From Escherichia coli 042 (lineage in GTDB: Bacteria > Pseudomonadota > Gammaproteobacteria > Enterobacterales > Enterobacteriaceae), in the NCBI RefSeq assembly GCF_000027125.1, contig NC_017626.1: a stretch of DNA of 64,000 bases; one strand, written 5' to 3'. The notes under the pieces are model-generated. The model was given only the letters and a program-made list of their open reading frames with translations. It had not been told where the DNA came from and did not search any database. A program made the translations under genes and the position numbers. Below, in pieces: positions 1 through 51,880 of the stretch (its first letter is position 1; every line of letters starts with the position of its first letter).

Positions 1-9
1 GGATCTGCA

Positions 10-1554: not shown

Positions 1555-4500
1555 TTTTTCGCCTCCTGTACCTGATCGCGACCTTCATCATCCAGCCAGT
1601 TAACGTTCTTCATCTTGCGGATCATGATGAATTCGTCGCGGTTCGAGCCGACGGTGCCGTAGTAGTTAAAGCCCCAGGCCAGCTGCGCGTAACCGCCAAT
1701 CATATGCGTTGGTTTCGGACAAACGCGGGTGACCGAGTTATGAATGCCGCCGCGCATGCCAGTTACTTCCGAACCAGGAATATTCATAATGCGTTCCTGG
1801 GCGTGATACATCATGGTCATACCCGGCGGTACACGTTGGCTGACCACCGCGCGGGCAGTCAGCGCGCCGTTGGCGTTAAACACTTCCACCCAGTCGTTAT
1901 CGACAATGGTCAGTTCACGGGCATCGGTTTCGCTGATCCAGACAATTGGTCCACCGCGAGAGAGCGTCAGCATTAGCAGGTTTTCACTGTAGGTTGAGTG
2001 AATGCCCCATTTCTGGTGCGGCGTCAGGAAGTTAAGTGCTTTTTCCGGGAAGCCGTTTGGCGGTATCTGGCGCATTTCACTGACGCTACGGGTGTCGATA
2101 GGCGGGCGATAAGCCACCAGGCTTTCACCAAAAGCACGCATCCACGGATGATCCTGATAAAGCTGCTGGCGTCCCGACAGCGTGCGCCACGGAATTAACT
2201 CATGAACGTTGGTGTATCCCGCGTTATAGGAGACGTGATCGCTTTCCAGACCAGACCATGTGGGGCTGGAGATAATTTTACGTGGCTGCGCCTGAATATC
2301 GCGAAAGCGAATCTTCTCGTCCTCTTTGTGCAGCGCCAGATGGGTATGTTCGCGTCCGGTGATCTCGCCCAGCGCCTGCCACGCTTTGACTGCAACATGA
2401 CCGTTGGTTTCCGGTGCCAGCGCCAGAATCACTTCTGATGCGTCAATGGCGGTGTCAATCAGCGGACGCCCCTGTGCTGGGCCTTCACGCTTGGTGTAGT
2501 TGAGTTTGCCGAGGAAATCGATTTCATCCTGGGTATTCCACGAAATCCCTTTACCGCCGTTGCCAAGTTTGTCCATCAATGGCCCGAGCGAGGTAAAGCG
2601 TTCATAGGTAGCAGGGTAGTCGCGTTCCACCGCCACAATATTGGGCGCAGTTTTACCTGGAATCAGATCGCATTCGCCTTTGCGCCAGTCGAGCACTTCA
2701 CACGGCTGTGAGAGTTCTGCCGGAGAGTCATGCAGCAGTGGTTGTAATACCACGTCGGTTTCTTTGCCAAGATGGCCCACGCACGCTTGCGAAAAGGCTT
2801 TGGCAATACCTTTGTAGATTTCCCAGTCGCTGCGTGATTCCCACGCCGGATCGACCGCCGCAGATAGGGGATGAATAAACGGATGCATATCCGAGGTGTT
2901 CATATCGTCTTTTTCGTACCAGGTGGCGGTGGGCAGAACGATATCGGAGAACAGGCAGGTACTGGACATACGGAAGTCGAGCGTCACCAGCAGGTCGAGC
3001 TTGCCTTCAATCGCCGCAGTTTGCCACTCGACTTCTTCTGGTTTGATCCCGTCGCTGGCACCGAGTTCCTGACCCTGAATCCCACTTTCGGTTCCCAGCA
3101 GATACTTCTGCATATACTCGTGGCCTTTGCCGGAGGAGCCAAGCAGGTTAGAACGCCAGACAAACAAATTACGCGGATGATTGCTGCCGCTATCTGGTTG
3201 TTCGCAGGCCATGCGTAAATCGCCCGAATTCAGCGCCTGGGCGGTAAATTCTGTGGGGGATAATCCGGCCTTGTCGGCTTCAGCTTTAATCCCGAGCGGG
3301 TTACGCCCCAGCTGCGGCGCAGAAGGTAGCCAGCCCATACGTTCGGCACGAACGTTGAAATCAATCAGATGACCGCTGTACTTACTGGCATCGGCGAGCG
3401 GTGAAAGTAACTCCTGAGCAGAGACTTTTTCATAGCGCCATTGGCTGGAATGATTGTAGAAAAACGAGGTGCTGTTCATCTGGCGCGGTGGTCGGTTCCA
3501 ATCGAGCGCAAAGGCCAGCGGCAACCAGCCGGTTTGCGGGCGCAGTTTTTCCTGACCGACATAGTGTGCCCAGCCGCCACCGCTTTGCCCGACACAACCG
3601 CAGAAGATCAGCATGTTGATCATTCCCCGGTAGTTCATGTCCATGTGGTACCAGTGGTTAACACCTGCGCCGAGGATAATCATCGAGCGTCCATGCGTTT
3701 TATGGGCAGTATCGGCAAATTCACGAGCGATGGTTTCAATATACTGGCGCGGCACACCGGTAATTTGCTCACCCCAGGCTGGGGTGTACGGTTTGATTTC
3801 AGCGTAATCTTTCGCGCTGTTTTCATCTTCCAGCCCGCGATCGAGGCCGTAATTCGCCAGTACCAAATCATAAACGCTGACCACCGGACAGGTGTTGCCA
3901 TCGGCTAATGTCAGGTTTTTAACGGGCAATTGGCGCACCTGGACCGGATTGTGTTTTACGCTGCGAAAATGCGGATTTTCAATGCCGCCAAAGTAGGGGA
4001 AGGCCACGCCTGCAACGGCATCATGTTGACCGAGCAGGGTTAATGACAATTCGGTTTCCGTACCGGCGGCAATAGATTCCAGATTCCATTTGCCTTTTTC
4101 TCCCCAGCGAAAACCAATCGAACCGTTCGGCACCACCAGTTCACCTGCGGTATTAACTGCCACGGTTTTCCACTGCGGATTATTGCTTTCGCCCAGTCCA
4201 TCCACCAGGTCAGATGCGCGGACCATGCGCCCGGGAACGTAGCTGCCGTCGTCGCGAGGTTCCAGCATTACCAGCATCGGCATGTCGCTGTAGCGGCGGC
4301 AGTAGTTGATAAAATAATCGCTGGGATTATCGAGATGAAACTCTTTTAAAATGACATGGCCCATTGCCATTGCCAGGGCACTATCAGTGCCTTGTTTCGG
4401 TGCCAGCCACTGGTCGCACAATTTGGCCACTTCAGAGTAGTCAGGGGTAATGGCGATGGTTTTAGTGCCTTTGTAGCGTACTTCGGTAAAGAAGTGGGCG

Positions 4501-5291
4501 TCCGGCGTACGTGTCTGAGGTACGTTAGACCCCCAGGCGATGATGTAGCTGGAGTTATACCAGTCGGCAGATTCTGGCACGTCGGTTTGCTCGCCCCAGG
4601 TCATCGGCGAGGCAGGCGGCAGGTCGCAATACCAGTCATAGAAACTTAAACAGGTGCCACCTAACAGCGACAGATAACGTGTTCCGGCGGCGTAAGAAAC
4701 CATCGACATCGCCGGGATCGGCGAGAAACCGGCAACGCGATCCGGGCCGTAAGTTTTGATGGTCCAGACGTTAGCGGCAGCAATCAGCTGATTTAGCTCC
4801 TGCCAGTTAGAGCGGATAAAGCCGCCGCGTCCACGTACTTGTTTGTAGCTCAGGCACTTTTGCGGATCGTTCATAATCGATGCCCACGCCAGTACCGGAT
4901 CGCTGTGTTGCTTGAGGGCTTCGCGCCACAGTTCAATCAGTCGTTTACGAATGAGCGGGTATTTCAGACGGTTAGCGCTGTAGAGATACCAGGAGTAACT
5001 TGCGCCACGCGGGCAGCCGCGAGGTTCATGATTGGGCAGGTCAGGGCGAGTGCGCGGGTAGTCGGTCTGTTGGATTTCCCAGGTCACCAGACCATTTTTA
5101 ACGTAGATTTTCCAGCTACAGGAGCCTGTACAGTTAACACCGTGGGTGGAACGCACGATTTTGTCGAACTGCCAACGCTGGCGATAGCTGTCCTCCCAGT
5201 CGCGGTTGCTATGCATCACCTGTCCGTGACCATCGGCAAAGGTTTCGCCCTTTTGTTTGAAGTAGCGAAAGCGATCCAAAAGTTTACTCAT
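1551..5291 (-). CDS. narZ: Respiratory nitrate reductase Z alpha subunit (molybdopterin)
   Basis: Track ORF is 1287 aa; start moved to internal ATG at 5289-5291 giving MSKLLDRFRYFKQKGETF (1246 aa), the NarG/NarZ N-terminus with the HGVNCTGSCSW Fe-S motif. Confidence 0.93.
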   Translation of the reverse strand: MSKLLDRFRYFKQKGETFADGHGQVMHSNRDWEDSYRQRWQFDKIVRSTHGVNCTGSCSWKIYVKNGLVTWEIQQTDYPRTRPDLPNHEPRGCPRGASYSWYLYSANRLKYPLIRKRLIELWREALKQHSDPVLAWASIMNDPQKCLSYKQVRGRGGFIRSNWQELNQLIAAANVWTIKTYGPDRVAGFSPIPAMSMVSYAAGTRYLSLLGGTCLSFYDWYCDLPPASPMTWGEQTDVPESADWYNSSYIIAWGSNVPQTRTPDAHFFTEVRYKGTKTIAITPDYSEVAKLCDQWLAPKQGTDSALAMAMGHVILKEFHLDNPSDYFINYCRRYSDMPMLVMLEPRDDGSYVPGRMVRASDLVDGLGESNNPQWKTVAVNTAGELVVPNGSIGFRWGEKGKWNLESIAAGTETELSLTLLGQHDAVAGVAFPYFGGIENPHFRSVKHNPVQVRQLPVKNLTLADGNTCPVVSVYDLVLANYGLDRGLEDENSAKDYAEIKPYTPAWGEQITGVPRQYIETIAREFADTAHKTHGRSMIILGAGVNHWYHMDMNYRGMINMLIFCGCVGQSGGGWAHYVGQEKLRPQTGWLPLAFALDWNRPPRQMNSTSFFYNHSSQWRYEKVSAQELLSPLADASKYSGHLIDFNVRAERMGWLPSAPQLGRNPLGIKAEADKAGLSPTEFTAQALNSGDLRMACEQPDSGSNHPRNLFVWRSNLLGSSGKGHEYMQKYLLGTESGIQGQELGASDGIKPEEVEWQTAAIEGKLDLLVTLDFRMSSTCLFSDIVLPTATWYEKDDMNTSDMHPFIHPLSAAVDPAWESRSDWEIYKGIAKAFSQACVGHLGKETDVVLQPLLHDSPAELSQPCEVLDWRKGECDLIPGKTAPNIVAVERDYPATYERFTSLGPLMDKLGNGGKGISWNTQDEIDFLGKLNYTKREGPAQGRPLIDTAIDASEVILALAPETNGHVAVKAWQALGEITGREHTHLALHKEDEKIRFRDIQAQPRKIISSPTWSGLESDHVSYNAGYTNVHELIPWRTLSGRQQLYQDHPWMRAFGESLVAYRPPIDTRSVSEMRQIPPNGFPEKALNFLTPHQKWGIHSTYSENLLMLTLSRGGPIVWISETDARELTIVDNDWVEVFNANGALTARAVVSQRVPPGMTMMYHAQERIMNIPGSEVTGMRGGIHNSVTRVCPKPTHMIGGYAQLAWGFNYYGTVGSNRDEFIMIRKMKNVNWLDDEGRDQVQEAKK

Positions 5292-5385
5292 GACATAACT
5301 CCTGCTCCAGGAATGAATTGGGATCTGATGCCTTGTCGGGTGCGACACGGTTGTAGCCTGATAAGACGTGTCAGGCATCGATCTC

Positions 5386-6774
5386 TTATTTTTGGCTGAA
5401 CTTCCGCCGACCATAAACCAGCCAGGTCAGCAGCACACAAACGATGTAGAAGATTAAAAACACTTTCATCGCGCCTACCGGAGAGCCGGTCATATTGAGC
5501 GACATGCCAAACGCCTGCGGAATGAAAAAGCCGCCCACTGCGCCAATGGCTGAGATAAAGCCCAGAGCCGCCGCCGTTTCGGTGACGGCTTCTCTCTGAG
5601 CTTGCTCATCACTACCGCCTTTCATCTTCACCCGATAAATGGTTATCTGGCGAAAGATGACGGCGATCATCTGGAAAGTAGAACCACTTCCCAGACCTGC
5701 GGTCAGAAACAACCCCATAAATACGGCGTAAAATGCGATGAAATTACCGGAGCCTGTGCCCGGTAAGGTAAGGAACAGCAGGGCGCTGAAAATCGCCATA
5801 AAAATGAAGTTGATCAACGTCACCCGCACGCCGCCGAATTTATCGGAAATAGCACCACCAACCGACCGCGCGATGGCACCAATAAATGGGCCAAAGAACG
5901 CCAGGCGCAGAATATTCACATCAGGGAACTGAGTTTTCGCCAGCATGGCAAAACCCGCAGAAAAACCGATAAACGAACCGAAGGTGGCAAGGTAAAGCAG
6001 GCTCAGCAGCCAGAGATGCAGGCGTTGTAACACTGGCAGCTGGTCGGCAATTGACGCGCGTGAACTGGCGATATCATTCATCCCTGACCAGGCGGCGATC
6101 GTGGCAATCGCCAGTAATGGCACCCAAATCCATGCGGCATTCGCCAGCGACATCACCGAACCGTCGGCCTGCGGTACGCCATTGACGCCGAGAAAGGCAA
6201 ATACGGGTACAAAAATGACCAGCGGTGCAACCAGCTGCATCACACTTACACCTAAGTTTCCTAATCCGCCATTAATCCCAAGTGCGCTCCCTTGTTTGGC
6301 TTTTGGGAAGAAGAAACTGATATTGCCCATGCTCGAAGCAAAGTTCGCACCTGCAAAACCGCATAGCAAAGCGATAACGATAAATATCCCAAAAGGAGTA
6401 TTCGGATTCTGCACGGCAATTCCGAGCCAGACGCAAGGAATAATCAGGATTGCAGTACTAAAAACCGTCCATCGGCGTCCACCAAATATAGGCACCATAA
6501 AGGAGTAGGGGACACGCAATAATGCGCCAGAAACGGAGGGTAATGCGGTTAATAAAAAGAGTTGATCGGTAGTGAAATTAAAACCGATTTTATTGAGATT
6601 AACAGTAACTGCGCTAAATAGCATCCAGACACAGAAGGCAAGAAGTAGACAACTGACTGATATCCAGAGGTTTCTTCGAGCAATATGTTTTCCTTTATTT
6701 TCCCAGAAGGCCGGATTTTCTGGTTTCCAGTCGCGCAAAAGATAACGACTAGTTTTCTCATTTTGCAGTGCCAT
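5386..6774 (-). CDS. narU: Nitrate/nitrite transporter (MFS, NarK family)
   Basis: Start taken at internal ATG 6772-6774 (MALQNEKTSRYLLRDWKPENPAFW), 462 aa; multi-TM hydrophobic profile; sits immediately upstream of narZ. Confidence 0.9.
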   Translation of the reverse strand: MALQNEKTSRYLLRDWKPENPAFWENKGKHIARRNLWISVSCLLLAFCVWMLFSAVTVNLNKIGFNFTTDQLFLLTALPSVSGALLRVPYSFMVPIFGGRRWTVFSTAILIIPCVWLGIAVQNPNTPFGIFIVIALLCGFAGANFASSMGNISFFFPKAKQGSALGINGGLGNLGVSVMQLVAPLVIFVPVFAFLGVNGVPQADGSVMSLANAAWIWVPLLAIATIAAWSGMNDIASSRASIADQLPVLQRLHLWLLSLLYLATFGSFIGFSAGFAMLAKTQFPDVNILRLAFFGPFIGAIARSVGGAISDKFGGVRVTLINFIFMAIFSALLFLTLPGTGSGNFIAFYAVFMGLFLTAGLGSGSTFQMIAVIFRQITIYRVKMKGGSDEQAQREAVTETAAALGFISAIGAVGGFFIPQAFGMSLNMTGSPVGAMKVFLIFYIVCVLLTWLVYGRRKFSQK

Positions 6775-7085
6775 ATTGTTCCTCACATGTACACATTGGT
6801 AATGAAAAAAAGACAAAACAGGAGGTAAGGCGCAATAGCCAGTTATTAGAATTAAGGATGAATTGGGTGAAGTGCTGATTGAAAGAATAGATAAGAAAGC
6901 GTAACCGCGGGGGCAGAATGGGGATTAAACAGACAGATATGTGTTACTAAATGTAACTAACAAGCTAACCATTAAACGGATGTTAAGCTATGTATGCATG
7001 TCATGATCCAACCCTTCAGATGATGAATCCAAAGGGTTTATATTTTTAACAAGACCAGACACTTATAGAATTAGTGATGATTTAT

Positions 7086-8342
7086 TCACTGAAAAGGCCA
7101 TGAGCTGGAGGAAAACGATCTGTCCAGAAAGTCTATCGGTTCCTCTCTTATCGCCTCATTGTAATAATCGTTATTACAGTAAGTATTGTTTATTTCATCT
7201 AATGTCATATTTTTAATTTTTATATTCATCTGATTTACAACTTCTTCTGTTTTATAAGTGTGTATATTATATGGGGTATATGCTTCTTTAATAGTATAGT
7301 GAAACAATTCGTTATCCACATCTACTCCGTCAGAGTGAACTTCAAATGCACCAGGCGAAAGAATTGCCAGGCCAGTATTAAGCTTAAGTGCTGGGGAAAA
7401 TAAATTAAATAACATGAGCTGGATAGTAGGGCAATTGTTCTTCCCAGAAACATTTAAAAAATTTAAGTTTTTGCTCTGTTTTATTATGGGGAATAAAGTT
7501 CCAATATCGGACGTATTCTTAGTGTCAATGCGGGTTATTTTATTATTGTCCAGCCTTAAACTTTTGATAGATGAAAGATAAGTCAGGAAATGAAGGTTTA
7601 TTTTTTCCAACTGATTGTTCGCAGCGTTTAATGTCTGAATATTGCAGAAGTTGCTAAAGAATATTTTAATTTCAGAAAGCAAGTTGTTGTTGATAAGTAA
7701 CGTATTCAAGTTGGGAAAAAAGGTATTATGTAAACTTGTTAGTTTATTATGGGATAGATCCAGAAGTAAGAGTTCATCTTTATTTCCTGCAACAATATCA
7801 GTTAATTGATTGTGGCTGAGATTCAGGTACTGCAGCCTTTCGCAACATTCTAATTGCACAAACTCTAGTTGATTATGTGCCGCACTAAAATAAGTAATTG
7901 ATGAAAGCCTATCTATATCAATATTTCTGAGAGAATTATTATTCATAGATATATGTGTAATGCTTACATTTCTACCTTGAGGAAAATTTATTGACTCAAG
8001 AGCATTACTATTCAGACTAAGGTTGATGAGTCTATCGTAGGTGGTTGCATCAAAATGTTTGAGTTGGTTCTCATCAAGATTGATAGAGGTGAAGTTTTGC
8101 AGTCCTGGTGGTTGAGTAGTTAAATTAAGCCCTGATAAATCAATATTATTCTGTTTCGACAAAAAAGCACAATTTATCCTTTTAGCGGCTTCGTTTCGGC
8201 ATTCCGGACGATGGATTTCACCTGTAAGTATGCGTTCTGCTTTCCATTGATTTAATTCGAGCATCCAGTTAAGTTCATTTTTTTCTGGATGTTGCTGTAT
8301 GGATTGTGGATTTATTTTATTAAATATTGAAGGGAATTTCAT
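7086..8342 (-). CDS. Leucine-rich repeat protein (YopM/IpaH-like N-terminal region plus about 10 LRRs, no recognisable catalytic domain)
   Basis: Track ORF begins at GTG 8381; preferred start is ATG 8340-8342 (MKFPSIFNKI) preceded by GGAG. Tandem ~22-residue LxxLxLxxNxL repeats; very AT-rich coding sequence. Occupies the yddJ/yddK position of K-12. Confidence 0.8.
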   Translation of the reverse strand: MKFPSIFNKINPQSIQQHPEKNELNWMLELNQWKAERILTGEIHRPECRNEAAKRINCAFLSKQNNIDLSGLNLTTQPPGLQNFTSINLDENQLKHFDATTYDRLINLSLNSNALESINFPQGRNVSITHISMNNNSLRNIDIDRLSSITYFSAAHNQLEFVQLECCERLQYLNLSHNQLTDIVAGNKDELLLLDLSHNKLTSLHNTFFPNLNTLLINNNLLSEIKIFFSNFCNIQTLNAANNQLEKINLHFLTYLSSIKSLRLDNNKITRIDTKNTSDIGTLFPIIKQSKNLNFLNVSGKNNCPTIQLMLFNLFSPALKLNTGLAILSPGAFEVHSDGVDVDNELFHYTIKEAYTPYNIHTYKTEEVVNQMNIKIKNMTLDEINNTYCNNDYYNEAIREEPIDFLDRSFSSSSWPFQ

Positions 8343-20868: not shown

Positions 20869-21006
20869 TTACTTTTCAGCGGGGCGTTTTCTGCCGGTTG
20901 GGTTATTTACCACGCTGGATTTGTCACCTTCGGTAACTATTTTGCGCTGGTTAGAAATTTTATGGTCCAGTCCAAGAATATGACGTGCCTGACGGTTCGA
21001 TTTCAT
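20869..21006 (-). CDS. sra: Stationary-phase-induced ribosome-associated protein (small protein, below ORF-track cutoff)
   Basis: Hand translation of the minus strand from ATG 21004-21006: [45 protein letters not shown] then stop; GAGGAG RBS. Confidence 0.85.
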
Positions 21007-21107
21007 TTTAACTCCTCAATCCTGTTGCTAGTTTTAAGGACAACATCGCCGTAGCGAAGAAACACGTGCTAAACCCCTAAATTAGGTTGCCGATCAAGCA
21101 TAGCACC

Positions 21108-21323
21108 TTAAAGCGTAGGGTGCTGGCCACTGACCACATAATTGATCGTTTGCTGGTAGATATCACTGAGGATGTCGTTATCAGAAGCTTCCACCCATTT
21201 GGTCAGCTCCATGAGAATGTCATCTTCAGTGACAACACCGTGCTCTGCCCGAAGGCCTTGCTCAATGGCATTAACCAGAGCGGGTTCTGCTGTTGAATTT
21301 TCTGCCTGATAATAAGTAAACAT
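21108..21323 (-). CDS. bdm: Biofilm-dependent modulation protein
   Basis: Start at internal ATG 21321-21323 (MFTYYQAENSTAEPALVNAIEQGL), 71 aa; divergent from osmC. Confidence 0.85.
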   Translation of the reverse strand: MFTYYQAENSTAEPALVNAIEQGLRAEHGVVTEDDILMELTKWVEASDNDILSDIYQQTINYVVSGQHPTL

Positions 21324-21667
21324 AGCGATTCTCCGTGTCTGTGTATTTTTGGTGTCTGCTACGGATCGCAGATATATAAAGCACATTCAGCATGGCAAAT
21401 ATTTGCCGCTTCGTTGTTAAGATTAGTCCTGGTTGATAATTTTTATATTATAACACCATGATATTCATAGGGATTGTAATTGGGGCGATCCGATTAATAT
21501 TGATACAATATCTTTTGGATTATATATTCCCCGTTATCTATTGTGGGAATTTAATTTAAGTACAGAGATAATGTTTTCGCCGGATTTTATTCGGAATATC
21601 CTGCTTATCCTCGTGCGGTTTCTCACGTAGTCTATAATTTCCTTTTTAAGCCCACAGGAGAGCAACA

Positions 21668-22099
21668 ATGACAATCCATAAGAAAGGTCAGGCACACTGG
21701 GAAGGCGATATCAAACGCGGGAAGGGAACTGTATCCACCGAGAGCGGCGTGCTGAACCAACAGCCGTATGGATTTAACACGCGTTTTGAAGGCGAAAAAG
21801 GAACCAACCCTGAAGAACTGATTGGCGCAGCGCATGCCGCATGTTTCTCAATGGCGCTTTCATTAATGCTGGGGGAAGCGGGATTCACGCCAACATCGAT
21901 TGATACCACCGCCGATGTGTCGCTGGATAAAGTGGATGCAGGTTTTGCGATTACTAAAATCGCACTGAAGAGCGAAGTTGCGGTGCCGGGTATTGATGCC
22001 TCTACTTTTGACGGCATTATCCAGAAAGCAAAAGCAGGATGCCCGGTTTCTCAGGTACTGAAAGCTGAAATTACGCTTGATTACCAGTTGAAATCGTAA
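21668..22099 (+). CDS. osmC: Osmotically inducible peroxiredoxin (OsmC/Ohr family)
   Basis: 143 aa, MTIHKKGQAHWEGDIKRGKGTVSTESGVLN; preceded by about 340 bp of AT-rich promoter region. Confidence 0.93.
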   Translation: MTIHKKGQAHWEGDIKRGKGTVSTESGVLNQQPYGFNTRFEGEKGTNPEELIGAAHAACFSMALSLMLGEAGFTPTSIDTTADVSLDKVDAGFAITKIALKSEVAVPGIDASTFDGIIQKAKAGCPVSQVLKAEITLDYQLKS

Positions 22100-22154
22100 A
22101 GCGTTGCCGGATGACGCGTCAGGCGCGTGATTGCCTGATGCGTTGTTAGCGTCT

Positions 22155-23081
22155 CTACAGCGCCCGCCAGCACCGGATCTCACGTCCGTCCTCCCTTATT
22201 GTTAATGATTGCCGGACTTCACATCCGTGGGTTGCCAGAGGGCAGCGTTCGCGGAAAAAACAGCCTTGTGGCAACGTGCGGTTTCCTGGTAGATCCGTTT
22301 TACGTAATGCCCATTCTTCCTCCAGCGGTTTATCAATGGCGGGGAGGGAATCCAGCAATAATCGGGTGTATGGATGTGCCGGAGCTGTCAGCACCTGTTG
22401 CGCGTCTCCTAGTTCCACAATCTGTCCGAGATACATCACCGCCACCCGATCGCTCATATGACGTATCACCGAGACATTGTGTGAAATCAGCACATAAGTC
22501 AGCCCGCGATTTTCCTGTAGCGTTACCAGTAAATTGAGGATCTGCGCCTGCACGGAGATATCCAGCGCCGAGGTTGGTTCATCAAGCACAATCACGTCAG
22601 GCTGCGAAGAGAGTGCTCTGGCAATGGCGATACGTTGCCGCTGCCCGCCTGAGAACGCATGAGGCAAGCGATCGAGATACTCCGGACGAATACCCACCTG
22701 CACAGCCAGCTCCTCTGCCAACGCTCGCCGCTGTTGTTCACTACTACGCTTAGCTATCCAGAGCGGTTCTGTGATGATGCGCCACACCGGTAAGCGCGGA
22801 TTGAGCGAAGAGAGCGGGTCCTGAAACACCATCTGCATAATGCGTTGTGATCTTGAACGGATGTACTGCCCGTGGCTCGGTTGCAGCATACCCATTAAAA
22901 GCTGTGCGAGGGTGCTTTTGCCGCAGCCTGACTCACCGACGATCCCTAAGGTTTCACTACGACGGATCTGTAAATCAATACCATTGATGGCATGAACATG
23001 TTCCGTAGTTTTACCAAGCCAGTTTTTTCGGGCCGGGAAATTGATATGGACGTCGCGTAACGTTAATAACGTGTCAGACAC
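22155..23081 (-). CDS. ddpF: D,D-dipeptide ABC transporter ATP-binding protein
   Basis: Walker A GESGCGKST and ABC signature LSGGQRQR; start assigned to GTG at 23079-23081 (MSDTLLTLRDVHINF, 308 aa), overlapping the ddpD 3' end. Confidence 0.88.
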   Translation of the reverse strand: MSDTLLTLRDVHINFPARKNWLGKTTEHVHAINGIDLQIRRSETLGIVGESGCGKSTLAQLLMGMLQPSHGQYIRSRSQRIMQMVFQDPLSSLNPRLPVWRIITEPLWIAKRSSEQQRRALAEELAVQVGIRPEYLDRLPHAFSGGQRQRIAIARALSSQPDVIVLDEPTSALDISVQAQILNLLVTLQENRGLTYVLISHNVSVIRHMSDRVAVMYLGQIVELGDAQQVLTAPAHPYTRLLLDSLPAIDKPLEEEWALRKTDLPGNRTLPQGCFFRERCPLATHGCEVRQSLTIREDGREIRCWRAL

Positions 23082-24060
23082 TAATGACCTCCTGCTGAGG
23101 ATACCAACAGGCGCAGCGGTGGTTGTTGTCACCATACGCTGTTAGCGCCGGGACGTTTTCACACTGTGCACCTGCCGCATAGCAACGATCGCGAAAAGCG
23201 CAGCCGTCAGGCAAATGGGTGAGGTTTGGTACCGTCCCCGGAATAGCGGGTAATGGCTGGCGCGGTATTCCATGTTCCGGTGCGCATTGCAGCAAACCAA
23301 TGGTATACGGATGCCGGGGATGATGGATAACGTCTGCCGTCACGCCGCTCTCAATCACGCTTCCGGCATACATCACGTAAACGCTATCGCACAGTTGCGA
23401 CACCACGGCCATATCATGGCTGATGAACAGTACCGCAGTTCCACTGGCGCGGGCTTTATGTTTAAGCAGACGCAGTACCTGCAACTGTACCGTGACGTCC
23501 AGCGCCGTAGTCGGTTCGTCGGCAATAATCAATTGCGGCTCGCAGGAGAATGCCAGCGCAATCATTACCCGCTGTCGCATACCACCTGAAAGCTCAAACG
23601 GATAGCGCGACATAACTTCCACGGCATCCGGGATTTGCATCTCTTCCAGCAGGGCAATCGCTTTAGCTCTGGCTTCCCGACGACTTTTTGGTTGATGATG
23701 GCGGATCACGTCCATCATCTGAAGACCTATTCGACGTGTCGGATTAAGGGCGGTCATCGGTTCCTGAAAGATCATCGCCACTCGTGCGCCGCGCCACTGA
23801 CGAAGCTGTTTTTCCCGAGCGTTAAGAGCATCTTCTCCCAGCAGTGAAATATGTCCCCGATGTACGCAATAACTGCCCGTCGGTAACAGACGCATAATCA
23901 ACATTGCAGTGACTGATTTACCCGAGCCGGATTCTCCCACCAGACCGACAATTTCACCGCGGTTGATTTTCAATGACACATTGTTGAGCGCGTGAACATC
24001 ACCGTTAAAACCGGGGAAACTCAAATGCAGTTGTTGAATGTCCAGAACGGGTTGGGTCAT
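23074..24060 (-). CDS. ddpD: D,D-dipeptide ABC transporter ATP-binding protein
   Basis: 328 aa with GESGSGKS Walker A and LSGGMRQR signature; start overlaps ddpC stop. Confidence 0.9.
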   Translation of the reverse strand: MTQPVLDIQQLHLSFPGFNGDVHALNNVSLKINRGEIVGLVGESGSGKSVTAMLIMRLLPTGSYCVHRGHISLLGEDALNAREKQLRQWRGARVAMIFQEPMTALNPTRRIGLQMMDVIRHHQPKSRREARAKAIALLEEMQIPDAVEVMSRYPFELSGGMRQRVMIALAFSCEPQLIIADEPTTALDVTVQLQVLRLLKHKARASGTAVLFISHDMAVVSQLCDSVYVMYAGSVIESGVTADVIHHPRHPYTIGLLQCAPEHGIPRQPLPAIPGTVPNLTHLPDGCAFRDRCYAAGAQCENVPALTAYGDNNHRCACWYPQQEVISV

Positions 24061-24953
24061 GACTGCTTTCCTCCTGCTTTCGGGTCAAGCAGATCGCGAA
24101 TACCATCACCAAAGAGATTAAACCCGACGGCGGTAAGCAAAATCGCTGCCCCCGGAAATGCGCAATACCACCATTGATCGAGCACATAGTTGCGACCATT
24201 CGCCACCATCGCCCCCCATTCAGCACTTGGTTGTTGAGCACCCAGGCCAATAAATCCCAACGTGGCGGCCATTAAAATCGCGCTACCGATATCCAGCGAT
24301 GCCTGCACAATCAGCGGCGGCAGGGAGTTACGTAAAATATGCCAGTTGATCAGATGCCAACGCGACGCACCAAAGGTTTTCGCCGCCTGAACATAGGTAT
24401 ACTGGCGAACAACTAATGTTTGCCCCCGCGCCAGGCGCACATAAAAGGGAATTCGCACAATAGCAATCGCCAGCATGGCGTTAAACAAACTCGGCCCGAG
24501 AGCGGCTGCCAGTGCCATTGTCAGCACCAGCGAAGGAATCGACAGCATAATGTCCATGATGCGCATGATAATCGCGTCTGCGCGTCCGCCAAGCACACCG
24601 GATAGACACCCGAGTAGCGACCCCATCATACCTGCAATGGCGACCACCACTAATCCGGCGAGAATTGATTGCTGACTGCCGACCAGTACGCGGCTAAACA
24701 GATCGCGTCCCACTTCATCGGTGCCAAACCAGTGCGCCGCAGAAGGCGGCAAAAGGCGGGCGGTTAAATCAATGGCGTTGGGATCATGCGTCGCCAGCCA
24801 CGGTGAAAAAATCATCATCAGTAGCATTAATACAATGATGACTGCGCCGGTCACGGTAAGCGGGCTGCCTTTCAGCATCCATACCAGTTTTGCACCGTTA
24901 AATCGCGTTTGTTTTGGTGGGCGCACGGCTGACGTTTCCTCGCTTAGCATCAT
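24057..24953 (-). CDS. ddpC: D,D-dipeptide ABC transporter permease
   Basis: 298-aa polytopic membrane protein of the DppC/OppC type; 4-nt overlaps with both neighbours. Confidence 0.9.
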   Translation of the reverse strand: MMLSEETSAVRPPKQTRFNGAKLVWMLKGSPLTVTGAVIIVLMLLMMIFSPWLATHDPNAIDLTARLLPPSAAHWFGTDEVGRDLFSRVLVGSQQSILAGLVVVAIAGMMGSLLGCLSGVLGGRADAIIMRIMDIMLSIPSLVLTMALAAALGPSLFNAMLAIAIVRIPFYVRLARGQTLVVRQYTYVQAAKTFGASRWHLINWHILRNSLPPLIVQASLDIGSAILMAATLGFIGLGAQQPSAEWGAMVANGRNYVLDQWWYCAFPGAAILLTAVGFNLFGDGIRDLLDPKAGGKQS

Positions 24954-25972
24954 TCACCACCTCCACGTCCGATACGCGGATCAATCCACAAATAGAGCAA
25001 ATCCACCACCAGGTTGACCAGCACATAAGCAAACGAAACCACGACGGCAAATCCCATCACCGCAGGGAAGTCGAGCGCCTGTATTGATGTCACTACCCAT
25101 GCCCCCATTCCGGGCCAGGCAAAAACGGTTTCGGTGAGCACTGCGCCATACAACAAATCGCCCAGCGCCAGACCCAATACGGTAATCGAGGGGATCAACG
25201 CATTGGGTAGCGCATAACATAAAACGATATACCAGCCGGGCAAGCCGCTGGCCCGGGCGGTACGAATGTAATCTTCACTCAATTGTTCCAGCATAGCTGA
25301 GCGGATCTGGCGAGCGACAATTCCCAGGTGAACGAACGCCAGCGTTAATGCCGGTAAGATGAGATGTTGCAGCGCATTGAAGAAGACTTCACCGTTGCCT
25401 TCAAGCAGCGCATCGAGCAGATAAAAGCCGGTAACGTGCGTTGGTGGATCCAGCCAGTCATCAAGCCTTCCGCCGCCGGGAAGAATTTGCAGATGACCAT
25501 AAAACAGCACAATGACGCCCAGCCCAAGCCAGAACGCAGGTGTGGAGATTCCGGTAATGGCCATTATTCGCACCAGATGATCCAGCCAGCGATTTCGCCA
25601 GACTGCAGAGAGTATGCCCAGCGGGATGCCAATCAGGAGTGCCAGCAGCAGGGCACAAAAAGCCAGTTCCAGCGTCGCCGGGAAAAATATACGCAACTCT
25701 TCCAGCACCGGACGCCCGGTACGAATGGATGTTCCCAGGTCACCCTGAAACAGGTCGCTGACGTAGCGGTAAAACTGTACGTACAGTGGCTGGTCCAGTC
25801 CCAGTTGCTGGCGAATATTATCCACGATAGCATCGCTGGCGCGGTCACCCGCCAGTAACCGCGCCGGATCGCCGGGGATCAGGTGCGAGATAATAAACGT
25901 TATCACACAGACGCCCGCCACCACGAGCACCAGCCCCCAGCAGCGTTGGCGTAAAATACTCCAGAAGGTCAC
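24950..25972 (-). CDS. ddpB: D,D-dipeptide ABC transporter permease
   Basis: 340-aa DppB/OppB-type permease. Confidence 0.9.
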   Translation of the reverse strand: MTFWSILRQRCWGLVLVVAGVCVITFIISHLIPGDPARLLAGDRASDAIVDNIRQQLGLDQPLYVQFYRYVSDLFQGDLGTSIRTGRPVLEELRIFFPATLELAFCALLLALLIGIPLGILSAVWRNRWLDHLVRIMAITGISTPAFWLGLGVIVLFYGHLQILPGGGRLDDWLDPPTHVTGFYLLDALLEGNGEVFFNALQHLILPALTLAFVHLGIVARQIRSAMLEQLSEDYIRTARASGLPGWYIVLCYALPNALIPSITVLGLALGDLLYGAVLTETVFAWPGMGAWVVTSIQALDFPAVMGFAVVVSFAYVLVNLVVDLLYLWIDPRIGRGGGE

Positions 25973-25973
25973 G

Positions 25974-27524
25974 TTATTTACTCATGGTATTGATATTGAA
26001 GACCTGTTCCAGCATGGGATTGAACACAAAACCTTTCACCTCTTTGTTCATCGCCAGTTGGTAGTTTTTCTGGAACAGGTACACATAAGCAGCGTCATCA
26101 ATGACGATTTTCTGTGCCTGCTGGTAGTCCCGAGTACGCTGCGTCTGGTCGGTGGTCGCTAGCGCATTGCGCAGTAACTTATCGACCTCACTGTTTTCAT
26201 AGAACGAGCGGTTACCCGGCAGACCTTTTTTGTCTGACTCAAACCAGTAATTCATAAACATATACGGGTCGGCAAAATCCGGACTCCAGTTGCCAATCGC
26301 AATGTCATAATCACCTTTTCCCACTCTGTCGCGCATGGTGGCGTTCGCCAGCTTTTCCAGCTTCACGTTGATGCCCAGCTTGTTGAGACTGGATTGTGTC
26401 GCCAGAGCAATAGGCTCCCAGTTCGGATCATTATCAGAATAGAGAAACGTCAGGCTGGTGGGTTTGCTCGTCACTTTATCCCATTCGGCTTTGGCTTTCG
26501 TTTCGTCATGGTTGTATTGCATTGCCGTCGCATCGTATCCCCACATGCCTTCCGGAATCGGGCCGCGCATTTGTTTTCCGTTACCACTCAGAATGCCGTT
26601 AACCATACCCTGATAATCGGTAGACCAGGAAATGGCCCGACGCAGATCCGCCTGATTAAGTGGCGCTTTGCTGTTATTCAGATACAGATAGGTGACGCGC
26701 AGTGACGGATACTCTGCCACATTGACTTTGTTTTCCTGCTTCAGTGCGTTGAGTTGATCCACCGGCAGCGCATCGGCAATGTCAATGTCGCCACGGGAGA
26801 GCTGCAGGCGACGGGAAGCACTTTCACCGATAATTTTTACCGATACCCGTTTGAAATTCGGTTTATTGCCGGGGTAATGCGGATTTGGCACCAGAACTAA
26901 TTGCTGACCTTTTTGCCAGCTTTTCAGCATAAACGGTCCGGAGCCAGCGGTATTTTGCGCGAGGAAACCACGTGCATCATCCGCCGCATGCTCCTTTAAG
27001 ACCGCCGGATTGATAATGGATGCACCGTCATTCGCCAGCGTGTAGAGGAACGGTGCGAATGGCTGGCTAAGGGTAAACCTCACTGTATGTTCGTCGGGAG
27101 CATCAATCTTTAAATCTTTGGGAAATGCTTCTGCTGGCCCCTGGCCGATTTTTAGTAACCGCTCAAAAGAGAGTTTTACTGCTTCGGCAGTGACAGGAGT
27201 GCCATCGGCAAATTTAGCATTATCCTTCAGGGTGAATGTCCACTCTTTTTGATCGTCAGACGCTTTCCAGCTACTCGCCAGATCGCCTTCAACGTCGGTT
27301 GAGCCTTTATCACCGTCCGTTTTGTACTGAACCAGTCGCTGATAAGACGGGTAGGTCACTGTCCAGTCGTTATTATCAATTGTCACCGCTGGGTCGAGGG
27401 TTTGTGGGTCGGCAGCTTTACCGATCACCAGCATATCTTTCGGTACGGCGGCGTGCGCAACCGGCATTGTTGTGGCAAGGACGATCGCGAGCAATGTAGG
27501 ACGAAACAAAATCGATCTCTTCAT
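25974..27524 (-). CDS. ddpA: D,D-dipeptide periplasmic substrate-binding protein
   Basis: Start moved to ATG 27522-27524 (MKRSILFRPTLLAIVLATTMPVAHA, signal peptide) with AGGAAA RBS; 516 aa, family 5 solute-binding protein. Confidence 0.9.
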   Translation of the reverse strand: MKRSILFRPTLLAIVLATTMPVAHAAVPKDMLVIGKAADPQTLDPAVTIDNNDWTVTYPSYQRLVQYKTDGDKGSTDVEGDLASSWKASDDQKEWTFTLKDNAKFADGTPVTAEAVKLSFERLLKIGQGPAEAFPKDLKIDAPDEHTVRFTLSQPFAPFLYTLANDGASIINPAVLKEHAADDARGFLAQNTAGSGPFMLKSWQKGQQLVLVPNPHYPGNKPNFKRVSVKIIGESASRRLQLSRGDIDIADALPVDQLNALKQENKVNVAEYPSLRVTYLYLNNSKAPLNQADLRRAISWSTDYQGMVNGILSGNGKQMRGPIPEGMWGYDATAMQYNHDETKAKAEWDKVTSKPTSLTFLYSDNDPNWEPIALATQSSLNKLGINVKLEKLANATMRDRVGKGDYDIAIGNWSPDFADPYMFMNYWFESDKKGLPGNRSFYENSEVDKLLRNALATTDQTQRTRDYQQAQKIVIDDAAYVYLFQKNYQLAMNKEVKGFVFNPMLEQVFNINTMSK

Positions 27525-27537
27525 GACAGTTTCCTGA

Positions 27538-28119
27538 TTAACTGGCGTGCTGTGTGCCAGGGGATATAAAACAGGTGAATTGATCAGCGAGTAGTGGGTA
27601 ACTCGCTGCCTGGGGTAATTCGAAGTGCCACCATTCGCTCGGGATACCGACAAAGCCACCGCCAGTCATAATCGCATTCAGCAACAGCCGATTGCGCTGA
27701 GCGGCGGGCGGGACGGAAGGGTGATAAGCATGGGAACGTTCGTGCATTTCATCGAACTCTGCACCCATATCCAGGATGTTCCCGTGCTCATCACGAAGCG
27801 TCAGGTCGATCGCCGTGCCACGGCTGTGATTAGAACCGACCGTCACATCAACAACATATTGCGGGTCTGGGCAGGTTTGCCACAACATCGCCTGTGCTTG
27901 TTGTGGGCGATACGCATCGTAAATCACCAGTTGTAAGCCTGACAGCTGGGCGATACTGATACTTTTCGCCAGCGCAGTAATCGCATCCTTGTGTAACAGA
28001 CAACGCGCTTGCTGATAAATAGCTTTGCCTGTGATGTTATCAGCGCAGGCGTATTTCAGTTCGATCTCCAGATCAGGGAAGATCACGGCTAAATCAACCA
28101 GTTCGGTGGTATCCGACAT
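27538..28119 (-). CDS. ddpX: D-Ala-D-Ala dipeptidase (VanX homologue)
   Basis: 193 aa, MSDTTELVDLAVIFPDLEIELKYACADNITGK with the VanX-type Zn-binding pattern; first gene of the ddp operon. Confidence 0.9.
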   Translation of the reverse strand: MSDTTELVDLAVIFPDLEIELKYACADNITGKAIYQQARCLLHKDAITALAKSISIAQLSGLQLVIYDAYRPQQAQAMLWQTCPDPQYVVDVTVGSNHSRGTAIDLTLRDEHGNILDMGAEFDEMHERSHAYHPSVPPAAQRNRLLLNAIMTGGGFVGIPSEWWHFELPQAASYPLLADQFTCFISPGTQHAS

Positions 28120-28376
28120 AAACGGTTCCTGTATAAGACAAAAATTGCTGCGCTTTCCGCTTATGCAGATCTCATGCCATGCCGGGATAAGCGCCAGAAT
28201 GCTGGCTTAAAGTTATATTTTTTAACTTTTGATCAACATTTGTGCAGCGTAGTGCAGTTTTGGTGCAAGAGGGGAAGTTAAGGAAGGAATCTCCCGGAAT
28301 CGTAGCTGAAATCACAGTATTTAAGTGACAGTGTCACTTTAAAGGAAAACCCGCGAGTGCGGGCGAGAGGAATTTG

Positions 28377-30776
28377 TCAGATTTTCAGCGGTAACACACT
28401 GCTCATCCAGCCTGGAATTTCTTCGGCGGGCAGGGGGCGGGAAAAGAAATATCCCTGAATAACGCGACAGTGGATCTTGCGTAGCATCTCAAATTGCTCT
28501 TTGGTTTCGACGCCTTCCGCCACGACGGTTAAATTAAGGCTTTGCCCAATGCTGGTAATGGCTTCAAGTAAGGCAAGGATGCGTTTTTCGGTCAGACAAC
28601 GATCGACAAAACTTTTGTCAATTTTGATTTCCGTTACCGGAAGACTGACTAAGCGGGATAATCCGGAAAAGCCCGTGCCAAAATCATCTACCGATAAACC
28701 CACGCCCATATCGCGCAGGATCTGAATGCGCTTAAAGATTTCGGTATCGTGTTCCATCATCATGCTTTCCGTGATTTCCACCGTCAGCTGGTGGCCGTCA
28801 ATACCCCAGGCGTGCATTGCATCAGACACCTGATTAGGCAGTTGATTACTGCGAAAGTGCAGCGCCGACAAGTTAACGGATAACGCCGGGATATGAATAT
28901 TCTGGCTACGCCATTCTGCTAACTGACGGCAAGCTTCCGCGATGACCCAGCGCCCAATATTTTCGATTTCACCGATCTCTTCTGCGAGAGGAATAAACCG
29001 TGAAGGGGGCACATGACCATGCAGGGGATCGTGCCAGCGAGCAAGGGCTTCGATGCCGTACAGTTCACCCGTTTCTGCGAAGATTTGCGGCTGGTAAACC
29101 AGTTTCAGTTGGTTATTGCTAATTGCTTCTTTCAGCGCCGCGCCTAAAACCAAACGCTCTTTTACCATTTCGTTCATCGCCGGGCTGAAGAACTGCCAGC
29201 CGTTACCGCCATTTTTGCGAATAAAATCCATTGCATTGTGAGCAGTGGAGAGCAGGTAATCGCGGTTTTTACCCACGTCGTAGCTGATGCCAATGCTCAA
29301 GGTGAGCGGGAATGGCTTATCGTCAATCATTATCGGCTTGCTGACCACATTCCGTAGCTCATCGGCGATTTGCGTAATGTTACTGACGTCGTTTTCCAGG
29401 CTCACGAGGACAAACTGCGTACCTTCGATACGACAGAGATATTGATCCGGTTTGAGTTTTTCACGAAAGCGATTGACCACTTCCAGCAATGCCTGATCGG
29501 CCCACGCATAGCCAAGGCTATCAATCACATCCTGAATATGGTCAACACTGATGAGATAGACCACCGGAGAGACGGCTTTGTCGACCAGGTCATCGAGGTA
29601 ATTGTGCAGGTTATTGCGATTTGGCAGACCGGTCATCGGATCAAATTGGATGAGTTGTTCAATATGCTGACGGCTTTTTTCCTGTTCCAGCGCCAGCGCG
29701 GCCATATGCTGGCTGATATCTGCCACGCGTTCGATAAAGGCGCTGGTTTCTGCTCCTGACGAGGTTTTAATTTGCAGGATCCCCGCAGGCGCACCATCAC
29801 GCTGACGAATGGTCGCTGACCAGCTTTGCGCATTTTGAACTTCTGCACCGTGCGAAGATGACGCCCAGTGTATCGGCATCCCGTTGCGCAGCGCGAACAG
29901 CGAAACATGCGATTCGTTGAGTACAGATTCGATGTTACGACAAATGATTTCCCCCATTTCATGAAATGGCGGGCTGCTGCACATGGCGGCGAGAATATTG
30001 CCTTCAAGCTGGCGGATTTGCCGTTCTTCGGTGATATCCGAGAAGGTCATTACCAGGTTCTGCAGATGCGCGAGCACGTCATAAACCGGGCTGATAGAGG
30101 CTTTAATCCAGATTTTTTCACCGGTGCGCGTCAATAGCAGAAATTCGTCCTGATCGCGGGCGGTTTTCCAAAGCAACTGTTGTAAACGAATGCGGTTATC
30201 GGCAGGGAATTCAGGAATGTTCAGGAGTGAATCGGGCTGCATACCGCTGGCTTCGCTAATGCAGTAACCAAACATTTCGGTAAATGCGCGATTGCACTGC
30301 ACAATATGGCGTTCCGGATCGAGGACAATCACCGGTCGGTCGAGATGGTCAACGGCAATAATCAATTGTCGGGTCTGTTCTTTTTGCGCCATTTCTACGC
30401 TGGCATCCCGTACCAGCGCCAGGTAATAAATTTTACCCTCGGCGCTCACTTTCGATAGCGCAAAACGGGTCCAGATTTTACTGCCGTCTTTTTTCTCCAG
30501 CTGCAGCTCCCGACTCATCCCCTCGACGCGCGCTTTACCGCCTTCACGGTTGTGACGGATGTATTCAGGATGCGCGGGACGCAAATCCCGTGGAATCAGC
30601 ATATCAATGTTATTGCCAATGACTTCTTCACGTTTGTACCCCCAGAGCTTCTCTGCGGCGGGGTTGAAAAACATCACTTCATCATTTTCGTTAATTAACA
30701 CCGCGCCCATCATATTTTGCTCAAGGGCGGGGAAAAAAATGCCATCGGCGGCATTATCCGCATCGGTTAGCTTCAT
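28377..30776 (-). CDS. dosP: Heme/oxygen-sensing c-di-GMP phosphodiesterase (PAS-GGDEF-EAL)
   Basis: Start moved to ATG 30774-30776 (MKLTDADNAADGIFFPALEQ) with GAGG RBS; 799 aa. Confidence 0.92.
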   Translation of the reverse strand: MKLTDADNAADGIFFPALEQNMMGAVLINENDEVMFFNPAAEKLWGYKREEVIGNNIDMLIPRDLRPAHPEYIRHNREGGKARVEGMSRELQLEKKDGSKIWTRFALSKVSAEGKIYYLALVRDASVEMAQKEQTRQLIIAVDHLDRPVIVLDPERHIVQCNRAFTEMFGYCISEASGMQPDSLLNIPEFPADNRIRLQQLLWKTARDQDEFLLLTRTGEKIWIKASISPVYDVLAHLQNLVMTFSDITEERQIRQLEGNILAAMCSSPPFHEMGEIICRNIESVLNESHVSLFALRNGMPIHWASSSHGAEVQNAQSWSATIRQRDGAPAGILQIKTSSGAETSAFIERVADISQHMAALALEQEKSRQHIEQLIQFDPMTGLPNRNNLHNYLDDLVDKAVSPVVYLISVDHIQDVIDSLGYAWADQALLEVVNRFREKLKPDQYLCRIEGTQFVLVSLENDVSNITQIADELRNVVSKPIMIDDKPFPLTLSIGISYDVGKNRDYLLSTAHNAMDFIRKNGGNGWQFFSPAMNEMVKERLVLGAALKEAISNNQLKLVYQPQIFAETGELYGIEALARWHDPLHGHVPPSRFIPLAEEIGEIENIGRWVIAEACRQLAEWRSQNIHIPALSVNLSALHFRSNQLPNQVSDAMHAWGIDGHQLTVEITESMMMEHDTEIFKRIQILRDMGVGLSVDDFGTGFSGLSRLVSLPVTEIKIDKSFVDRCLTEKRILALLEAITSIGQSLNLTVVAEGVETKEQFEMLRKIHCRVIQGYFFSRPLPAEEIPGWMSSVLPLKI

Positions 30777-48743: not shown

Positions 48744-48817
48744 TTTATCTCCTTAAAACAATAAAGTTTTTATCGATACTTTTTTAACATTTCACATTTA
48801 TAATTTGCTGTTTATTT

Positions 48818-49015
48818 TCAGTCTTGCAAACTATTGATAATGAAATGTGTAAGATCCCTTGCAATGCGACCCATTTCTGAAATACCCAGCTGATCAATTG
48901 CCGAAAACATGGCTATCAACGTAAGTGTCAGTAATAAGACAACCACAATTACAGACATGATTTCTTTATAGTTGTCTCTTTGCGTGATTTTGTTTTTCAC
49001 TGTGGTCGCATGCAT
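48818..49015 (-). CDS. safA: Small membrane protein linking EvgS/EvgA to PhoQ
   Basis: 65 aa, MHATTVKNKITQRDNYKEIMSVIVVVLLLTLTLIAMFSAIDQ, single TM helix. Confidence 0.85.
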   Translation of the reverse strand: MHATTVKNKITQRDNYKEIMSVIVVVLLLTLTLIAMFSAIDQLGISEMGRIARDLTHFIINSLQD

Positions 49016-49126
49016 TTCAAATATGTTTATTTAGCGGATAACGTTAAAAATCGTTAATCAGTATGCTTAATATAACAGGCTGGAGAATAGAGGAAATAGG
49101 ACTGGCGCTTCAGTACTGAGCGGAGT

Positions 49127-49142
49127 TTCTTACAGCTGTAGG
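49127..49142. promoter_or_regulatory. Candidate EvgA box upstream of safA
   Basis: TTCTTACAGCTGTAGG, an imperfect inverted repeat within a longer block shared with the ydeP upstream region; 112 bp upstream of the safA start. Confidence 0.5.
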
Positions 49143-51806: not shown

Positions 51807-51880
51807 ATAATAGCCTTCACAAAATAATTATCCGCGCAATTTCCGTGAATGGAGCGCATAGACTAAGATCAAAATCACAA

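Follow-up and report, generated by a model that had tools for sequence, protein, structure and literature searches.

Introduction

The five-component ABC importers encoded by nikABCDE, oppABCDF and dppABCDF share the architecture of the ddp importer. Junctions within nikABCDE fall at −1, −4, −1 and −4 nt (negative values are overlaps), and the D/F pairs of both opp and dpp overlap at −4, while a long spacer follows their binding-protein genes (+85 and +307 nt, respectively) and gaps of 9–14 nt flank their permease genes. A stem–loop between binding-protein and membrane-component genes is a classic device for making binding protein in excess, and that neighbouring ABC-transporter subunit genes share short stop/start overlaps is textbook knowledge and calls for no new explanation. 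The closest described system is the E. coli K-12 ddpXABCDF operon, which we take to be b1488–b1483 and on which Lessard and Walsh reportedly worked in the late 1990s. Unlike opp and dpp, Escherichia ddp has its ddpA/ddpB spacer collapsed to 1 nt and a dipeptidase gene in front.

In prokaryotes, three spacing classes are enriched, namely −4, −1 and −8 nt, and 24% of co-directional E. coli gene pairs lie within −8 to +6 nt, where reinitiation is efficient and which is 4.5-fold enriched for heteromeric complexes (PMC10666635; PMC12548453). Pairs characterized for termination–reinitiation (Huber et al. 2019, 2023; Brown and Wade 2025) are, like ddp, co-directional subunit genes of one heteromeric complex; the likeness of ddp, seen from sequence alone, lies in spacings of −4, −4, −8 and +1 nt and in an intragenic Shine–Dalgarno (SD) motif at three of these four junctions. 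Here we describe the ddp locus of E. coli 042 within a window of 64,000 nucleotides, the whole stretch of DNA analysed (contig NC_017626.1).

Operon identity and transcription

Six intact ORFs, all on the minus strand, occupy the region in the order osmC, ddpF-D-C-B-A-X, dosP, which is syntenic with annotated E. coli chromosomes. The first to be transcribed, ddpX (27538–28119; ATG, 193 aa), matches Pfam Peptidase_M15 over its full length (E = 9.8e-79), and from this match its product is predicted to be a VanX-type zinc D-Ala-D-Ala dipeptidase. It is followed by ddpA (25974–27524; ATG, 516 aa), encoding a periplasmic substrate-binding protein (SBP_bac_5, E = 1.3e-101), the permease genes ddpB (24950–25972; GTG, 340 aa) and ddpC (24057–24953; ATG, 298 aa; OppC_N and BPD_transp_1), and the ATPase genes ddpD (23074–24060; ATG, 328 aa; ABC_tran and oligo_HPY) and ddpF (22155–23081; GTG, 308 aa; RefSeq protein WP_001285562.1). 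The PepT-family domain set is thus complete above Pfam cut-offs, with one SBP_bac_5 protein, two BPD_transp_1 permeases (one with OppC_N) and two ABC_tran ATPases with C-terminal oligo_HPY, and the gene identities in the initial annotation, a VanX-like dipeptidase ahead of transporter components, were right. Solved structures of DppF, OppF, DppD and OppD match the ddp ATPases (E = 1e-72 to 1e-74 for DdpF against DppBCDF/OppBCDF). The predicted importer substrate is D-Ala-D-Ala, as suggested by the annotation and by the literature name 'D,D-dipeptide ABC transporter'. These genes make up the familiar E. coli ddpXABCDF operon for a cytoplasmic D-Ala-D-Ala dipeptidase and a peptide ABC importer; this identity, the GTG start of ddpF and the working of termination–reinitiation together form a reading that we consider highly probable.

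All gene coordinates agree with those that PGAP assigned in NZ_AP022298.1, which is 100% identical over the 8 kb at 21000–29000, compared with 96.9% for K-12 strains. Against the whole window, identity to this record is limited to ~20–32 kb and colinearity is gone before ~8 kb and after ~48 kb, so published genome-wide spacing numbers, rather than local annotation, served as our baseline. The K-12 operon has the same genes, order, lengths (193, 516, 340, 298, 328 and 308 aa), junctions and GTG starts of ddpB and ddpF; its proteins are 97–99% identical to those encoded here, and the differences are allelic only.

A pattern search places a sigma-54 type promoter motif, TGGCATGAGATCTGCA, on the minus strand at 28164–28179, 45 nt 5′ of the ddpX ATG. 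The ddpX promoter is RpoN/NtrC dependent, and published work handles the operon as a single transcription unit (PMC8743547). Under nitrogen limitation, ddpX mRNA rises 104.5-fold and ddpF mRNA only 2.2-fold (PMC8743547), so that expression along the operon is not tightly co-ordinated overall, a point against coupling. A search for internal promoters gave a single weak sigma-70-like site where 5.7 were expected, and none was convincing; the 11 terminator-like sites (7.5 expected) include none at a gene junction, and the only convincing terminator, at 28349–28364, follows dosP. An Rfam search of 20500–29500 at gathering thresholds returned zero matches to hidden RNA elements. The operon transcript is presumably also under RpoS control, as has been reported. 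At the distal end, the convergent osmC/ddpF spacer (22100–22154) holds a REP-like palindrome and contains the left boundary, at 22143/22144, of an operon-sized presence/absence polymorphism, located by comparison with a ddp-less strain.

The ddpF start codon

The initial annotation had chosen for ddpF a GTG eight bases inside the 3′ end of ddpD, a position that we confirmed base for base. Here the longest open frame for ddpF (326 aa) instead opens at an ATG (minus strand, 23133–23135), on which the initial annotation was silent, so picking the GTG needed justification. Were the ATG used, the protein would begin with the peptide MVTTTTAAPVGILSRRSL and its first 54 nt would be dual-coding with ddpD. 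An AGGAGG motif (23088–23093, minus strand) lies 6 nt 5′ of the GTG in the non-conserved C-terminal tail of DdpD (ending CWYPQQEVISV), and its anti-SD duplex has a predicted dG of −11.0 kcal/mol, against −1.7 at the upstream codon, which has no SD. The homologous position to the GTG is an ATG in 31/31 syntenic orthologous operons, with the SD kept, and 12 of them have the 8-nt ddpD/ddpF overlap as ATGTCTGA or ATGACTGA; several orthologs have no in-frame start at all 5′ of ddpF.

The upstream codon is not conserved. In K-12-type strains it is a GTG, and the TTA codon directly 5′ of the ddpF GTG in this frame (23082–23084, minus strand) is a TAA stop in K-12 and in five of the six other sampled strains, which closes the longer frame in six of seven; the change is synonymous in ddpD (ATT/ATA, Ile). 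The TTA and ATG alleles of this strain thus create a longer but spurious ORF. Homology to the solved DppF and OppF structures sets in at positions 18 and 23 of the longer ORF, near residue 19, which the GTG encodes, and the N-terminal extension has no homology to either protein. Initiation at 23135 is therefore effectively refuted, its probability being close to nil, and the SD at the GTG, the ortholog ATG and the upstream TAA elsewhere mark the 326-aa ORF as a strain-specific accident. No other in-frame start occurs within 130 nt downstream of the GTG, and no experimental DdpF N-terminus was found among the matches listed in a general ddpF/ddpX literature search. That ddpF starts at the annotated GTG at 23081 and encodes a predicted protein of 308 aa is well supported.

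Junction spacing and proposed translational coupling

On the minus strand, the junctions measure +13 nt (ddpX/ddpA), +1 (ddpA/ddpB), −4 (ddpB/ddpC), −4 (ddpC/ddpD) and −8 (ddpD/ddpF), all in agreement with RefSeq and K-12 annotation. The 4-nt ATGA overlaps at 24950–24953 (ddpB/ddpC) and 24057–24060 (ddpC/ddpD), as well as the single nucleotide between ddpA and ddpB, agree base for base with the initial annotation, and the 8-nt ddpD/ddpF overlap at 23074–23081 reads GTGTCTGA. Like ddpF, ddpC and ddpD have a strong SD in the 3′ part of the preceding gene (dG −10.3 to −11.0 for the three), which is usual though not obligatory for coupled pairs in E. coli: GGAGGT at 24959–24964 for ddpC (minus strand; dG −10.6), within the Gly-Gly tail of ddpB, and AGGAGG at 24070–24075 for ddpD (minus strand; dG −10.3). 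The SD of ddpA is weak (dG −4.3).

Spacings of −8 to +1 nt are permissive for termination–reinitiation, and the tight translational coupling that the initial annotation drew from spacing alone is a reasonable inference, partly supported here. Ribosomes ending ddpB, ddpC and ddpD would halt 0–8 nt from the next start codon, adjoining a strong SD embedded in the C-terminal tail of the upstream gene, and these ribosomes or their 30S subunits most likely re-initiate locally. Such SD-assisted termination–reinitiation would help to balance the four membrane and ATPase subunits. A coupling mode based on RNA unfolding was considered and rejected: the energies predicted for opening the −18 to +12 stretch around each start are 8.6–14.3 kcal/mol and do not exceed those at 200 random positions in the operon (mean 13.4, sd 3.9), with no sign of sequestration, so nothing points to a block on de novo initiation.

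The same energies, together with SDs strong enough that they could support independent initiation of ddpC, ddpD and ddpF, fit a different account, in which the overlaps reflect compact packing and these three genes are translated without functional coupling. The −4 and −8 geometries are mutationally the easiest to reach (NTGA, NTGNNTGA), a review describes −4 as easily evolved (PMC12548453), and among five native E. coli −4 pairs tested, one, bioBF, is uncoupled (PMC6728339). In that set, however, three pairs are strictly coupled and one is coupled at ~60% (PMC6728339), and ddpB has no SD of its own to initiate from. Comparison with other genera also weighs against packing. Among the 31 orthologous operons, B/C and D/F spacings fall within −11 to +5 nt in all 31 and C/D in 30, the exception being an unreliable automatic start call. 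Distances at a few loci are approximate, where automatic start picking erred (in operon L011 an internal GTG was taken for ddpB, and in L025 the TTG of ddpD is doubtful). Across Enterobacterales, Pseudomonas and beta- and alpha-proteobacterial orthologs, junction sequences and overlap classes differ (−11, −8, −4, −1, +1 to +5), yet the tightness stays. We therefore regard packing without coupling as unlikely. The single junctions are not beyond chance, since these spacing classes are common; taken as a conserved feature, judging from the orthologs, the tight spacing is more than chance, and its conservation at B/C, C/D and D/F argues for selection.

The ddpA/ddpB junction

The X/A and A/B gaps behave differently, varying among orthologs up to 232 and 318 nt, respectively. 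In this strain, ddpB begins with a GTG 1 nt past the ddpA TAA stop, and no SD was found ahead of it (duplex dG −2.2); the initial annotation mentioned neither the GTG nor the missing SD. Given the GTG, the missing SD and the 1-nt gap, ddpB translation would be almost wholly reliant on ribosomes terminating at ddpA, and of all the junctions this one, which the initial annotation had not singled out, is the likeliest to be obligatorily coupled. Orthologous ddpB genes have an ATG and an SD after a spacer of 23–318 nt. A stable spacer hairpin followed by an SD and an ATG is kept in 29 of 30 non-Escherichia orthologs and has been lost in Escherichia, a mildly new detail.

Two readings of this loss may be weighed. 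In the first, which we offer tentatively as a minority possibility, Escherichia has retooled importer expression: deletion of the A/B spacer, an SD-less GTG 1 nt past the ddpA stop and the change of the ddpF ATG to GTG would leave the DdpA:DdpBCDF ratio set not by mRNA processing or stability but by inefficient termination–reinitiation. Alternatively, loss of the spacer may be a first step of operon decay, complete in the ~21% of complete E. coli genomes from which the operon is wholly absent; roughly 4,290 E. coli genomes are ddp-positive. In its broader form, this second reading attributes both GTG starts and the SD-less ddpB junction to relaxed selection rather than tuned coupling. Besides these absences and the lost hairpin, SD and ATG, it draws on the two GTGs standing where every non-Escherichia ortholog has ATG, and on damage among only seven sampled strains, one with a frameshifted ddpB and one with an in-frame ddpC deletion. 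However, all six reading frames are whole here, as they are in most strains, and the operon can still be induced (PMC8743547). Eight E. coli strains that diverge by ~3–4% elsewhere have identical junction sequences. GTG starts are in any case common in E. coli, at ~14% of genes. On balance, we think relaxed selection on a decaying operon quite improbable as the source of these features.

Discussion

The ddp overlaps and the GTG start of ddpF are already known, as annotated. Because the junctions were annotated before and belong to the commonest bacterial types, the observation is correct but ordinary, and its import goes little beyond annotation quality control: the database start of ddpF (GTG, 308 aa) is upheld. 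The modest added value is evolutionary and lies in the loss at the Escherichia ddpA/ddpB junction and in the presence/absence polymorphism of the operon in E. coli. If the retooling of importer expression is true, it would make ddpA/ddpB a natural case of obligatory, SD-independent coupling, and the loss makes this junction a convenient place to test SD-independent reinitiation in a natural setting.

Gene content of the ddp operon

Six intact, contiguous ORFs occupy 22155-28119 on the minus strand and bear the RefSeq names ddpX, ddpA, ddpB, ddpC, ddpD and ddpF; the RefSeq annotation flanks them with osmC (convergent) and dosP. The initial annotation described a VanX-like dipeptidase gene, ddpX, with transporter genes, and the Pfam domains agree. 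DdpX is a predicted D-Ala-D-Ala dipeptidase (Peptidase_M15, E = 9.8e-79), DdpA is a binding protein (SBP_bac_5), DdpB and DdpC are permeases (BPD_transp_1, with OppC_N in DdpC), and DdpD and DdpF are ATPases combining ABC_tran with a C-terminal oligo_HPY domain. The solved structures nearest to DdpF are E. coli DppF and OppF, ATPases of the paralogous Dpp and Opp importers, and the mycobacterial fused Dpp/Opp ATPases.

Positions 21000-29000, used as an 8-kb query, match the E. coli chromosome NZ_AP022298.1 with 100% identity and find at least a partial match in 5,413 of the 5,426 complete E. coli genomes. Identity to NZ_AP022298.1 is 100% over ~20-32 kb of the window, and register is lost before ~8 kb and after ~48 kb (1-8000 and 48000-64000, by indels or different content); the strain is thus mosaic when set against the chromosome that best matches its ddp region. 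In that chromosome's annotation, the antitoxin gene yddM and a RelE/ParE-family toxin gene share 1 nt (~17123-17685, minus strand); the K-12 annotation has yddM without an annotated toxin partner.

Tight junctions are conserved and routine

The annotated coordinates translate to clean ORFs, with the same operon architecture in K-12, and every junction previously claimed is reproduced to the nucleotide. On the minus strand, ddpX and ddpA are separated by 13 nt and ddpA and ddpB by 1 nt (TAAcGTG), ddpB/ddpC and ddpC/ddpD overlap by 4 nt (ATGA), and the ddpF GTG lies 8 nt inside the ddpD 3' end (GTGTCTGA). The GTG start of ddpB had gone unmentioned. GTG accounts for roughly 14% of E. coli starts, so two in six ddp genes are unremarkable.

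These junctions are already annotated, are of the most ordinary kind and are not unusual. The spacings enriched in E. coli and across prokaryotes are -4, then -1 and -8; the interval -8 to +6 holds 24% of co-directional E. coli pairs (707 of 2,987), and subunits of heteromeric complexes make up 30% of pairs spaced -8 to +10 vs 7% of those separated by more than 20 nt (PMC10666635, PMC12548453). The paralogous importer operons of K-12 resemble ddp, with spacings of -1, -4, -1 and -4 in nik, +85, +14, +11 and -4 in opp, and +307, +9, +10 and -4 in dpp. Junctions of the same classes in the fdn and nar operons likewise show the ddp geometry to be routine: in the matched annotation, fdnH/fdnI, from another heteromeric-complex operon of the window, is spaced -8 (~16242-16249), and narZ/narH and narH/narW are spaced -4 and -1 (~1550-1553, coordinates uncertain as the window and the record are not colinear here).

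Scanning species-representative genomes with DdpF yielded 31 loci in which ddpX-A-B-C-D-F synteny is complete; they belong to Citrobacter, Enterobacter, Pantoea, Tatumella, Pluralibacter, Serratia, Rahnella, Brenneria, Pseudomonas and some beta- and alpha-proteobacteria. Across these operons, spacing is -4 to +5 at B/C, -4 to +2 at C/D (one doubtful automatic call excepted) and -11 to -1 at D/F, with the overlap class differing between genera; the X/A distance lies between -4 and 232 nt and the A/B distance between 1 and 318 nt. The tight junctions are conserved, not accidental, and the pattern fits selection for stop/start juxtaposition in the genes of the four membrane-complex subunits. On a 484-bp low-coverage contig of a Terrisporobacter mayombei assembly (NZ_JAHZMP010000160.1), a fragment with 97% identity to E. 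coli DdpF is almost certainly E. coli contamination.

ddpF starts at GTG 23081

Four independent lines mark the GTG at 23081 as the real ddpF start, bearing out the earlier assignment. First, AGGAGG lies 6 nt upstream (duplex -11.0 kcal/mol), and the frame downstream holds no further start codon for >130 nt. The longest ddpF ORF in this strain, previously unmentioned, runs from ATG 23135 (326 aa); neither this ATG nor GTG 23132 has a Shine-Dalgarno sequence (SD; -1.7 kcal/mol). Second, all 31 syntenic loci have, at the homologous position, an ATG with an SD ahead of it; 12 of them keep the 8-nt overlap (ATGTCTGA or ATGACTGA), and several lack any alternative start codon in frame within 90 nt. 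Third, six E. coli strains (K-12, O157:H7 and four more) carry an in-frame TAA immediately 5' of the GTG, where the window has TTA, a difference synonymous in ddpD (ATA/ATT, Ile); the codon at the upstream ATG is GTG in those strains, which makes the 326-aa ORF an accident of this strain. Fourth, the 326-aa product is homologous to DppF and OppF from residues 18 and 23 onward, and the GTG encodes its residue 19. GTG occurs at both ddpB and ddpF in 8/8 E. coli sequences examined; a divergent Escherichia lineage (94% DdpF identity) has ATG at ddpF.

Expression and translational coupling

A sigma-54 type -24/-12 motif (TGGCATGAGATCTGCA, pattern match, 28164-28179, minus strand) precedes ddpX by 45 nt, in agreement with the published RpoN/NtrC dependence of the ddpX promoter (PMC8743547). 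The window holds 6 matches to the pattern vs 1.6 expected from shuffles, the other five being at 40199, 41014, 50130, 50352 and 58926. Under nitrogen limitation, ddpX mRNA rises 104.5-fold and ddpF mRNA 2.2-fold (PMC8743547), which implies that polarity, processing or attenuation acts strongly within the operon; no annotated terminator explains the disparity.

Juxtaposed stop and start codons are the configuration of efficient termination-reinitiation (PMC10666635, PMC12548453), and the tight coupling proposed in the initial annotation is reasonable to infer from the sequence. We hold it at that strength because the GGAGG-type SDs of ddpC, ddpD and ddpF, located in the final codons of the gene upstream (-10.3 to -11.0 kcal/mol), could recruit ribosomes de novo, because the predicted opening cost of these three initiation regions is not above that of random operon positions, because mRNA is far from uniform along the operon (PMC8743547), and because five tested native E. 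coli -4 pairs comprised three strictly coupled, one ~60% coupled and one uncoupled (PMC6728339). The proposal was also partly misdirected, as ddpA/ddpB is more telling than ddpD/ddpF.

The ddpA/ddpB junction in Escherichia

The sole ddp gene without a recognisable SD is ddpB (best anti-SD duplex -2.2 kcal/mol). Non-Escherichia orthologs have a ddpA-ddpB spacer of 23-318 nt, and in 29 of 30 it contains a stable GC-rich stem-loop (MFE <= -8 kcal/mol, typically -20 to -50) followed by an SD and ATG, as in Citrobacter (TAA...GCGGAGCCgatttGGCTCCGCaaGGGGaagccaATG). A hairpin after the gene for the substrate-binding protein is a classic means of making the binding protein exceed the membrane components, as in the mal and his operons. 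Escherichia lacks the entire spacer, leaving a 1-nt gap at 25973 (TAA-c-GTG) and no SD.

This change may alternatively reflect relaxed selection, for ddpXABCDF and its promoter show presence/absence polymorphism in E. coli. The operon is absent from ~21% of complete genomes: only 4,271 of 5,426 cover the 8-kb query to 80% or more, and the D/F junction is present in 4,292. In a ddp-less strain, 6,154 bp (22144-28297) are replaced by ~66 bp of unrelated sequence, so that osmC adjoins dosP, with the left boundary inside the REP-like osmC/ddpF spacer. Two of seven sampled strains (NZ_CP032426.1 and NZ_CP051158.1) may show erosion: in one, ddpB is annotated as frameshifted, and in the other, which also has a shorter osmC annotation, ddpC carries a 135-nt in-frame deletion.

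With the spacer lost and an SD-less GTG left, translation of E. coli ddpB most plausibly relies on ribosomes that terminate at the ddpA stop, making ddpA/ddpB, not ddpD/ddpF, the best candidate for obligatory coupling in the operon.
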